NCBI GenBank assembly: GCA_000004695.1
Contig: CM000151.3
Span: 3,552,001 to 3,616,000, forward strand
Length of the DNA stretch: 64,000 bases
Source: Dictyostelium discoideum
Taxonomy: Eukaryota
Reading direction: 5' to 3'
In this document: one piece after another, positions 48,001 through 50,317 of the stretch
Layout of the letters: every line of letters starts with the position of its first letter
How positions within the stretch are numbered: position 1 is the stretch's first letter
Program-made: the position numbers and the translations under genes
The notes under the pieces: model-generated
Told to the model about the DNA's origin: nothing
The model's database searches: none
Seen by the model: only the letters and a program-made list of their open reading frames with translations

Positions 48001-49879
48001 ATTTATAAATTATTTATCAGATTCAAAAATAAATAAATTATATAAAAAGTGTAGTGGTGAAAATGATGGTATCGATAGTTCACCACCAATTTTAAATTGG
48101 TTTAATGCTGTTAAAAAAGTTGGAACAAATAATGATGATCAAATAATATCATTTGATTTTCAAGCAGCTGATAATGAAAGTGGTTTAAAAGATAAACAAT
48201 ATCCAATAGTTTACATTCAAACTATCGATTTACAAGTGATTCAAGGTGTAGCTCAAATTCAAAATAAAACAAAAACAACTGTAAATTATACATGTGAAAT
48301 TGAATTACCAACTGGATTTGGTTACAAATCAGATATTATATTCAGTGTTTATGGATTCATTAATAATGGTGGCTATTATAGTGGTTTTTCAAGTGACGCA
48401 TTAAATAATTTATCATTTAAATATTCAATGACTCAAATTGGAATTTTGAGAAAGATTGAAATCATTAGAGTATCTCAAATCACATCTAGTGGTGGTAAAT
48501 TATGGATTGTCGGAAGGGGTTTAAATTTATCAATTAGAATAAATATAAAATATAATAGAGATTCAAATTTTACACAAATTTCAATACCAACAACAGTTTA
48601 TTCAAGTGCTATTCTAATAGAAGATATTAAACCAACGGATGAACCTTTCATTATACAAGCATTTGATCAATCAAATAACAAAAAGTCCAAAATATTCAAT
48701 GTTTTACCATTGACTTTTAAATTGTCATCTGACGATTCAACTTCAATTGATTCATCATCATCATCATCATCATCTTCTTCTTTAACACCTACACCAACAT
48801 TATTACCCCCATTATCACCAATACCAACGAATAAACCTCAAACATGTTTAGGTGAACCAGTATGTGGTGGATCAAAACAAGGTATTTGTTCATCAAGTGG
48901 ATGTATTTGTTATCCACCTTGGATTGGTAATGATTGTAATTCACAAGTTATAATTATACCACAACCATCAACAAATACATCACAACCATCAACTGAATTA
49001 CCAATTATCGATAACAATAATCAAACATCAAATAGTACAAATTATTTATTCAAATCATTGATTTCAATTGTATCATTAAGAGAATTAGATTTTAATTCGA
49101 ATCAAGTTAATTTATATACATTTGATAAATGGATTTATACACCAATTAATAATATTAAAAGTCAATACTTTACAAGTATTCAAAGTGGTGATCCAAAATC
49201 AACAAATCCATTAACAACTAATATTACTGTAACTTTAGAATGGTTCAATCAAACAAAAATCATTCAATTCGCTAACAGTAATATAACAATGAATCCATCA
49301 AGTATTAAATATACAATTGAAATTACAGAATATAAATTTTTAAATCAATTAAATAGTCTTCAACTTGTAATGTCAGCATTATTCGAATCATCAAATTCCA
49401 AAGATACTTGCTCATTAAAAGAATTTGGAGATACAAGCGATGGTGATAATTCAAACTTCTTTAAAATTCAAATTGATGATCATTCACTTTATGGTAGATT
49501 CATTAAAAGAGCAATCATCGATTCAAAAGTATCTTCAATTGAAAATCAATTATTAGATTCAAAAATGAACTCAATTCAAACATCATCAATATCACAATCA
49601 TTCATTGGTATTACAATACCAAATTATAAACAGTCAATAATTATTGATCCAGACTTTTCAGTATTAGTAGATAGTAAACCAGTATCAAATAATGATAATA
49701 ATTCAATTTGTACATCAAATAAATCAAAACTAACAAGTGCTCAACTCGCTGGTATTATTATTGGTTCCGTTGCTTTTGCTGCTGTAGTTATTGTATCAAT
49801 TGTTTACTTGGTTGTGAAAAACAGAAAATCAGATTTATTCCTAAGAAATGTACAAAGTAAATTACAAAAAATGAACTGA
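45027..49879 (+). CDS. Large (about 1400 aa) type I surface glycoprotein, family copy T1: signal peptide, many N-glycosylation sequons, Ser/Thr/Pro stalk, EGF-like Cys knot, single TM, short basic tail; 6 exons (about 45027-45420, 45535-45822, 45971-46297, 46384-46707, 46801-47490, 47661-49879)
   Basis: Exon 1 reads MKLFEKIQVLILIFVSNYYFIKFSNCQ.. with a gtaatc donor. Exons 2-5 were chained through gtatgt, gtaagt, gtaatt and gtaagt donors with consistent phases and by homology to the two reverse-strand paralogs. Exon 6 (containing ORF 47792..49879) carries ..TRGDKFNGDYQINIT.., PTNKPQTCLGEPVCGGSKQGICSSSGCICYPPWIGNDCNSQ, and the TM segment AGIIIGSVAFAAVVIVSIVYLVV followed by KNRKSDLFLRNVQSKLQKMN. 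The introns contain (ATT)n at 45845-45950 and (ATA)n at 47503-47602. Confidence 0.6.
45845..45950. repeat. (ATT)n microsatellite inside T1 intron 2
   Basis: Perfect att run of about 35 units. Confidence 0.9.
47503..47602. repeat. (ATA)n microsatellite inside T1 intron 5
   Basis: Perfect ata/aat run. A repeat-bearing intron at the same position exists in T2 (56410-56490) but is missing altogether in T3. Confidence 0.9.
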
Positions 49880-50317
49880 TCAGCTTAATAAATTGTAGTT
49901 ACTTTTTTTATAAGAAAGTGGAAAGATGATAAATTTGTTAAAATGTTTAATAGAAAATTAAAAAAACTCTATTTAAATTTCCCCCCTTTTTTTTTTTTAT
50001 TGTGCGGATTGGCCAAACCAAACACTTTTTAATATTTTTTTTTAAATTTTTCAAATCAAACACTTTTTTTTTTTATTTTTTTTTTTTATTTGTTTTTTTT
50101 TTTTATTATTTTTTTTTTTTTTATTATTTTTTCTTTTTTCACCTTTTGGTATTGATTTTTTTTTTTTTCAGACCAGAAGTTTAGGTTTTGGCGATAAAAT
50201 CCAATGAACAGTTTTTTGTTTTTAATTAGAGAAAAAAAAAAAAAAAAAAAAAAAAAAAATTAGTACAAATATTTATATTCAATCTAAAATAATAAAATAT
50301 AATACCTCTAGAAGAAA

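Follow-up and report, generated by a model that had tools for sequence, protein, structure and literature searches.

Several of the processes that reshape clustered genes are well described. The human gamma-globin genes HBG1 and HBG2, the opsin genes and the pair CYP21A2/CYP21A1P are textbook cases of interlocus gene conversion. Templated insertion at a double-strand break, in which synthesis-dependent strand annealing is finished by microhomology-mediated end joining, is an established repair outcome, and for Drosophila inversions a staggered-break model accounts for breakpoints that are flanked by inverted duplications. The general pattern of interlocus gene conversion and concerted evolution has been documented (PMC2720389, PMC3966223), and comC is listed as an EGF-domain developmental gene (PMC4931340). 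Here, we describe a window of 64,000 nucleotides (nt) of Dictyostelium discoideum AX4 DNA (GCA_000004695.1, contig CM000151.3, positions 3,552,001 to 3,616,000, forward strand; G+C ~20%) that contains T1, T2 and T3, which are clustered ComC-like EGF/transmembrane paralogs, and a segment just behind the T1 stop codon that resembles the end of T2. We hold with high confidence that this segment is a dead 3′ end of the T2 type, which ectopic recombination displaced within a cluster undergoing concerted evolution.

Each of the three genes encodes one C-terminal transmembrane (TM) helix, followed by a basic tail of ~20 residues. We refer to the tail of T1 and T3 as tail A, to that of AX4 T2 as tail B, and to a third type as tail C. 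The features of the displaced end and of its relatives are listed below, with positions counted from the first letter of the window.

47660-49879, + strand: last exon of T1, a ComC-like EGF/TM protein, ending in tail A and TGA.
49748-49816, + strand: coding sequence of the T1 TM helix (AGIIIGSVAFAAVVIVSIVYLVV), from its translation and the family alignment.
49793-49891, + strand: T3-type block in T1, from alignment with T3, with the C-terminal half of the TM helix, tail A (KNRKSDLFLRNVQSKLQKMN), the TGA at 49877-79 and 12 nt of 3′ untranslated region (3′UTR; TCAGCTTAATAA).
49892-49968, + strand: relic of a type-B 3′ end, TM positions 6-13 and tail (IVVT-FFIRKWKDDKFVKMFNRKLKKL), non-coding.
54161-54246, - strand: C-terminal half of the T2 TM helix, tail B and TAA stop, matching the relic in intact form and making up the second arm of inverted repeat I2.
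61020-61135, - strand: C-terminal half of the T3 TM helix, tail A, TGA (61046-48) and start of the 3′UTR (TCGGCTTAATAAATAATTG), the type of sequence apparently copied into T1.
T1 48817-49792 (+), T2 55223-54248 (-) and T3 62108-61133 (-): homogenised tract of ~1 kb from the EGF domain to mid-TM, from identity and site patterns.

The T1 open reading frame (ORF; 47792-49879, + strand) ends in VYLVVKNRKSDLFLRNVQSKLQKMN and the TGA at 49877-79, and the relic begins at 49892, inside the equivalent of the TM helix. The nucleotides downstream of the stop (TCA GCT TAA TAA ATT GTA GTT ACT TTT TTT ATA AGA AAG TGG) open a stretch that, after the TGA, translates as S A stop stop I V V T F F I R K W K D D K F V K M F N R K L K K L. 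T2, which lies on the - strand with its end at 54161 (products P0012/P0083; C-terminal end AASYFIIKKWKDDKFVKTFNRKLKKLS), finishes in V V A A S Y F I I K K W K D D K F V K T F N R K L K K L S and a stop. The relic and the T2 tail agree without gaps at 60/66 nt (91%) and at 19/22 residues, and their local alignment score of 54 compares with 12.8 ± 2.2 in 1000 dinucleotide shuffles (z=19, 0/1000). In AX4 the relic is in the same frame as the T1 coding sequence (CDS), with TGA, TAA and TAA in between; it has no type-B stop codon and has lost one (Tyr) codon. The homology ends at 49968, exactly where the collinear match with the corresponding contig of the wild strain ACTFIW (L003) ends, and the final 'YLN' and everything beyond are unrelated. 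Across the relic region an independent assembly of the AX4 haplotype (L006) differs at only 2/4701 positions, so the relic is not an assembly error. It most probably has no coding role.

The first-pass annotation of this DNA had already noticed that the T1 3′ flank is nearly identical to the T2 tail, and that T1 and T3 have near-identical tail ends; the translations bear out the latter, and the former is strong, not too weak, once properly aligned. The downstream homology it delimited is real, but the relic extends upstream into the TM helix and excludes 'YLN'. Its placing of the relic in another frame was mistaken for AX4.

The wild strain ACTFIW carries a relic at the same T1 junction. There, the nucleotides behind the T1 stop are TGA TA ATTGTAGCTATCTATTTTATTATAAGAAAGTGGAAAGACGATAAATTTGTTAAAATGTTTAATGGAAAATTAAAAAAACTATCATAA, reading IVAIYFIIRKWKDDKFVKMFNGKLKKLS and a stop identical to that of T2 tail B. 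Since this relic runs into the type-B stop (CTATCATAA) and then into spacer homologous to the AX4 T2 3′UTR, the 3′ end that was displaced was complete. The AX4 relic has its closest relative in this copy (74/80 positions identical), which is out of frame with T1 because the stretch from the stop to the relic is 10 nt shorter. At two positions where K and T/S are kept in T2 and related tails, both relics have R and M. These two changes, the loss of a codon and of the stop in AX4 and the 10-nt indel in ACTFIW are consistent with neutral decay, at few sites. The relic and the event behind it are older than the split between the AX4 and ACTFIW haplotypes.

To place this junction in its context, we aligned the 3′ 2.3 kb of AX4 T1, T2 and T3 with their orthologues from ACTFIW, a divergent strain. 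Over the middle 850 columns, identity is 50-80% between paralogs and for the most part 91-100% between orthologues, with 0.74 in a single alignment window; biallelic sites there group the T1, T2 and T3 orthologues 68, 73 and 72 times (213 in total), against ~3 sites that group genes within a strain. The last ~1 kb behaves in the opposite way. Identity between paralogs within a strain (0.93-1.00) is at or above that between orthologues (0.85-0.99), and 34 informative sites, including eight fixed AX4-versus-ACTFIW differences, support within-strain groupings against three that support orthologues. This shows repeated interlocus gene conversion in the last ~1 kb after the haplotypes had split. 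The boundaries of the tract are sharp: identity rises from 0.3-0.5 to 0.95-1.0 at column ~1200 and falls at ~2190 for T2, whose tract ends in the TM helix (directly after GCTGCTGT). This is the point, at about 49785 on the T1 side, where homology between A-type and B-type sequence stops. T1 and T3 remain homologous across tail A, the stop and the first 14 nt of 3′UTR (TGATCrGCTTAATAAAT), and their homology ends exactly at the start of the relic. A second homogenised tract of ~200 nt lies at T1 47747-47947 and the T2/T3 equivalents (PIFSNIEKVNSTNEFGWKF, the start of DUF7035), where the three genes are 95-99% identical between flanks of 50-80%.

The two ends of the T3-type block differ in character. 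Its upstream end lies within homologous sequence, the A unit starting at TM position 5/6 and the B unit at TM position 6, so that the two units are in register. The short repeat ATTG(TA) bounds the block on both sides, at 49790-95 and 49892-97, and ATTG also occurs in the donor 3′UTR (AATAATTG). With a slash marking the junction, the TM sequence of T1 itself reads GTA GTT ATT G/TA TCA, the end of the block reads TGA TCAGCTTAATA AATTG/TAG, and the T3 3′UTR reads TGA TCGGCTTAATAAATAATTG/ATT; the junction type at the T1 3′ end is GTAGTTATTGTAGCT. Depending on where the cut is placed within the repeat, the AX4 block measures 99-111 nt. An AATAAA at 49887-49892 stands upstream of the relic; this signal is missing from ACTFIW. 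The start of the relic, at TM position 6, falls no more than ~10 nt from the boundary of A/B homology, as expected of a conversion tract that overran that boundary. As to the source of the block, the AX4 copy is identical to the T3 block at 78/87 nt and to several other tail-A genes at 78-80/87, with a T3-type start of the 3′UTR, and the ACTFIW copy is identical at 85/87 to the gene upstream of T3. No donor identical to the T1 A block was found in either haplotype. That the block matches different donors in the two haplotypes implies that conversion is ongoing.

The tails were also compared across the family, using the C-termini of 78 homologues and a tail alignment of ~75 paralogs that includes Tieghemostelium. 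From Dictyostelium to Tieghemostelium, the TM helix and tail align without gaps across these ~75 paralogs, in a tail pattern, Y..[IV]K[KN]+K..KF....N.KLK.[LI]N, that tails A and B and the relic all fit. Tails A and B share 7-8/24 residues, and A shares as many with unrelated clades (7/24 with P0015, 8/24 with P0011 and 7/24 with P0013). Tail B is nearer to the P0015/P0020 clade (13-15/24) and matches the relic/T2 tail at 21/24, and tail A matches T3-clade tails at 18-19/24. At the nucleotide level, A against B gives z=4.4 (1/1000 shuffles), against z=19-27 among copies of B. The similarity in pattern between A and B is thus family background and does not point to a local duplication. All T3-clade genes of D. 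discoideum, D. cf. discoideum and D. citrinum end in tail A, and no relic follows it in the five genes checked: the 3′ flank of T3 against tail B gave z=-0.1, none was found behind four other tail-A genes (two from D. citrinum and two from D. discoideum ACTFIW), and the flanks of T3 and the other tail-A genes against shuffles gave z between -1.3 and 1.5. We tried treating B and C as sister tails and rejected this, since C matches A and B equally well (8/19 each).

On balance, we favour an origin of the relic in ectopic gene conversion with a T3-clade donor, ended in ATTG microhomology, that left a type-B tail stranded behind T1. The relic would then most likely be the original T1 3′ end. Copying from the donor would have overrun the mid-TM A/B homology boundary and gone on through the end of the donor TM helix, tail A, the stop, AATAAA and the first nucleotides of the 3′UTR, and rejoining to T1 would have taken place at 4-5 nt of microhomology (ATTG) in the gene's own TM codons. 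The outcome would be an in-register insertion of ~100 nt with a new tail, stop and AATAAA, and an old tail left untranslated in the 3′ flank. Later, the A block may have been converted again from different donors while the relic decayed by substitutions and indels.

Any account of the relic also has to consider its other copy, T2, and the DNA between the two genes, where three further features lie.

54935-54937, - strand: premature in-frame TAA of T2, which is CAA in T1, T3 and the ACTFIW T2 orthologue.
53756-54000, + strand: T2-like pseudogene remnant, internally deleted, found by tblastn and convergent on the T2 3′ end.
49969-49995, + strand: rearrangement breakpoint, the start of the sequence that lies upstream of T1 in ACTFIW (L003 ~9247-9215), here inverted.

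The premature TAA of T2 lies inside the ComC supersandwich domain and was confirmed in the independent assembly. Public models P0012, P0083 and P0082 skip it (24 codons) by a 72-nt GT..AG 'intron' that is coding in T1/T3. In the haplotype of the AX4/NC4 type, T2 probably represents a pseudogene of recent origin or a truncated allele, and with the TAA ~260 codons upstream of its tail, the description of that tail as functional in the first-pass annotation is doubtful. The remnant at 53756-54000, which is 87.7% identical in nucleotides to the ACTFIW T2 orthologue, consists of a body fragment (amino acids (aa) ~965-1020) fused to a TM C-terminal half and a type-C tail (VIVSVSFLFFKK). The T2 reading frame leads to tail B in AX4 and, in ACTFIW, to tail C, which is the expressed tail there.

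We compared the structure of window positions 49969-54160 with L003 6543-16304. The stops of T1 and T2 lie 4.28 kb apart in AX4 and ACTFIT and ~4.28 kb apart in L006; in ACTFIW the genes are convergent and the distance is 232 bp. A gene of 774 aa that is upstream of T1 in ACTFIW and in ACTFIR is inverted downstream of T1 in AX4 (51702-53750), where the interval also holds spacer that is inverted relative to ACTFIW. The ~1.7 kb at 49996-51701 are rich in simple repeats and without a counterpart in the ACTFIW locus (L003). At the breakpoint, CTATTTAAATTTCCCCCC is the reverse complement of L003 9225-9247, and a direct-repeat family, D14, ties this point to 51716-51759; a search there for a tRNA or a mobile element returned no tRNA. 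Neither one nor two inversions gave a scheme that explained all junctions.

The homogenised tracts of the convergent genes, T1 48817-49792 (+) and T2 54248-55223 (-), form inverted repeats of ~1 kb that are 98-100% identical. The contigs of ACTFIR stop at both outer edges of this repeat, and that of ACTFIZ also ends at it. D. cf. discoideum ACTFIY (L010 16021-19067) has lost the middle of the pair, so that T2 aa 1-38 lie directly against a T1 that is frameshifted and cut short at aa 926. Owing to these contig ends and this deletion, no pre-insertion state was recovered. These assemblies point to a quasi-palindrome between T1 and T2 that lacks structural stability and varies from one haplotype to another.

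Several observations weigh against the conversion account. Its direction and mechanism are read from the end state; a T1 allele with the TM helix joined directly to tail B (YFIIRKWKDDKF) was not found, and the T1 3′ end is preserved in no outgroup, as it falls in the deleted centre of ACTFIY and at the contig ends of ACTFIR and ACTFIZ. The unconverted body of T1 is not clearly sister to any B-tailed gene, and the path of the heavily rearranged AX4 T1-T2 interval is only partly reconstructed. Furthermore, ancestral residues that have gone from both relics survive in the tail B of AX4 T2. The relic must therefore have existed alongside a functional copy of B, and this fits equally well a model in which the relic comes from a neighbouring gene that was lost. 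Such a loss is the main rival. T1 would always have had tail A, and the relic would be the last ~80 nt and the 3′UTR of a B-tailed paralog, downstream on the same strand, that was removed by a deletion from a few nt after the T1 stop to its own mid-TM. Same-strand tandem arrays with short spacers are the norm for the family, internal deletions ending in the TM region are known here (the 53756-54000 remnant and the central deletion of ACTFIY), and the coexisting functional B copy in AX4 T2 suits a lost neighbour. We nevertheless judge it unlikely: an intact neighbour is seen in no strain, and two coincidences would be required, namely a left breakpoint 2-14 nt from the stop and a right one within ~10 nt of the A/B boundary, in register. 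An in-register unit bounded by the same short repeat, ATTG(TA), would also fit a tandem duplication of ~100 nt in situ in the ancestor of T1 and T3, the upstream copy of which later diverged or was converted to tail A, and A and B do have a nucleotide similarity that is weak but significant (z=4.4, 1/1000 shuffles). This was the view of the first-pass annotation, of which one part stands: T1 does have a type-A tail and stop, in register, ahead of a type-B tail that is not translated. T3 has no such structure, the relic being missing from T3 and from the four other tail-A genes. Adjacent units should be closest relatives if they were recent tandem duplicates, and they are not, A and B standing at family background with B nearer to other clades. 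The copy that is not translated would also have kept 91-93% identity with the T2 tail, against a change of ~40% in the translated one, and conversion of the upstream copy alone would itself need an illegitimate junction. Nor is tail A a novelty of the event, as had been supposed; it is the standard tail of the whole T3 clade, and its presence in D. citrinum shows that it predates T1. A duplication in situ is, on this evidence, quite improbable.

An inverted repeat of 91% identity, formed in AX4 by the relic (49903-49968) and the T2 tail (54168-54233), flanks 4.2 kb that are inverted relative to ACTFIW, and the relic homology stops abruptly at 49968, so that the relic might be thought an inverted duplicate of the T2 tail, produced at a breakpoint between T1 and T2 in the AX4 lineage. 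ACTFIW argues strongly against this, for it lacks the rearrangement and has tail C on T2, yet carries the relic at the same junction, and we regard such a by-product as very improbable. The reverse may hold, with AX4 T2 tail B descended from the T1 3′ end. Least probable of all, to the point of being scarcely credible, is a functional alternative last exon or read-through extension giving a T1 isoform that ends in RKWKDDKFVKMFNRKLKKL. In both strains the B frame runs for 26-29 codons without a stop, and in AX4 it shares the frame of the CDS; against this, three in-frame stops (TGA, TAA, TAA) intervene, the frame differs in ACTFIW, AX4 has lost the Tyr codon and the stop, and AATAAA lies upstream of the relic. 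Among all frame-preserving GT..AG pairs in both strains we found no credible splice sites: the donors are non-consensus (GTATTA, GTTCCG) and would cut the TM helix to ~10 residues, and the other option is a 42-nt 'intron' that would give a chimera of tail A, a hydrophobic stretch and tail B. A spliced last exon in place of a vestige, which the first-pass annotation had named among the things that would refute its reading, thus receives no support in either strain. We therefore retain conversion with an illegitimate tract end as the preferred origin of the relic.

One could go further and regard the T1/T2 pair as a natural tail-swapping device, in which the inverted repeats flank A, B and C cassettes and recombination flips the tail that is expressed. 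If this were true, the fossil would be a silent cassette that can be re-attached; AX4 T2 reads B with C carried by the remnant, and ACTFIW T2 reads C with B silent behind T1. We give this idea little credence. Only the haplotype differences in the T2 tail hint at anything beyond concerted evolution, and rearrangement of an unstable inverted-repeat locus is enough to account for them.

The locus offers a clean, datable case of how gene conversion in a clustered surface-protein family can swap a whole cytoplasmic tail, and of how a 3′UTR can hold a readable record of the earlier one. The first-pass annotation had read the arrangement as giving paralog-specific cytoplasmic signalling; nothing here supports this, and it is speculation. 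There are also practical warnings for annotation. The ORF-like stretch after T1 is not an exon, a modelled intron hides the T2 nonsense codon in the reference strain, and the similarity of the T1 and T3 tails comes from recombination, not common descent. Additionally, the instability of the T1-T2 interval is relevant to the use of these genes as markers or in knockouts.

The host genes are well defined as members of their family. T3 (61046-63721 in the window, - strand, product P0001; C-terminal end VYLVVKNKKSVLFQRKVQNKLQKMN) matches, at 100% identity, a product annotated as 'EGF-like domain-containing protein' on chromosome 2 (8.48 Mb) of Dictyostelium discoideum AX4. The annotated T1 product (P0010) has 1408 aa, of which aa 670-1408 match 47660-49876 by tblastn at 99.9% identity. 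Four Pfam domains score above the gathering score in both, with bit scores in T1 and T3, respectively, of 72.5 and 129.9 for DUF7035, 100.1 and 96.7 for DUF7034, 55.4 and 54.1 for DUF7949 (EGF-like), and 67.6 and 65.0 for ComC_SSD; precomputed domains for T2 are the same four (DUF7035, DUF7034, DUF7949, ComC supersandwich). Literature searches returned nothing specific to the T1-T3 genes. The T3 ORF is uninterrupted at ~63190 (LIVVSKHFDEYGP), where T1 (47481-47659) and T2 (~56300-56525) have an intron of ~180-230 nt, an apparent intron loss in T3. In the ACTFIW T3 orthologue (L004 ~8010-8022), a 4-nt deletion (TGAT) took the stop and added QLNK from the former 3′UTR (P0084).

Set beside the systems described at the outset, T1 and T3 resemble ComC-like dictyostelid proteins in having all four domains, a single TM helix and a conserved basic tail of ~20 residues; they differ in that T1-T3 are known here from sequence alone and that AX4 T2 carries a nonsense codon. 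As in staggered-break inversions, an inverted segment in AX4 has inverted duplicates at its ends, namely the relic with the T2 tail and fragment F with the T2 body, although that model leaves unexplained both the relic, which is present in ACTFIW without the inversion, and the relocation of the neighbouring gene. As in templated insertion, T1 has one seamless homologous junction and one with 4-5 nt of microhomology (ATTG), only a short stretch was copied and nothing was lost from the recipient, although for T1 the repair pathway is inferred from the product only. With interlocus gene conversion, the T1-T3 cluster shares paralogs that are more alike than orthologues over a bounded tract, mosaic genes and donors that differ by haplotype; it departs from the classical cases in that the T1 tract ended without homologous resolution, so that ~100 nt with a stop were added, not replaced. 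The underlying biology is ordinary, namely concerted evolution with an illegitimate tract end, and the T1 relic is a new example of a known process.

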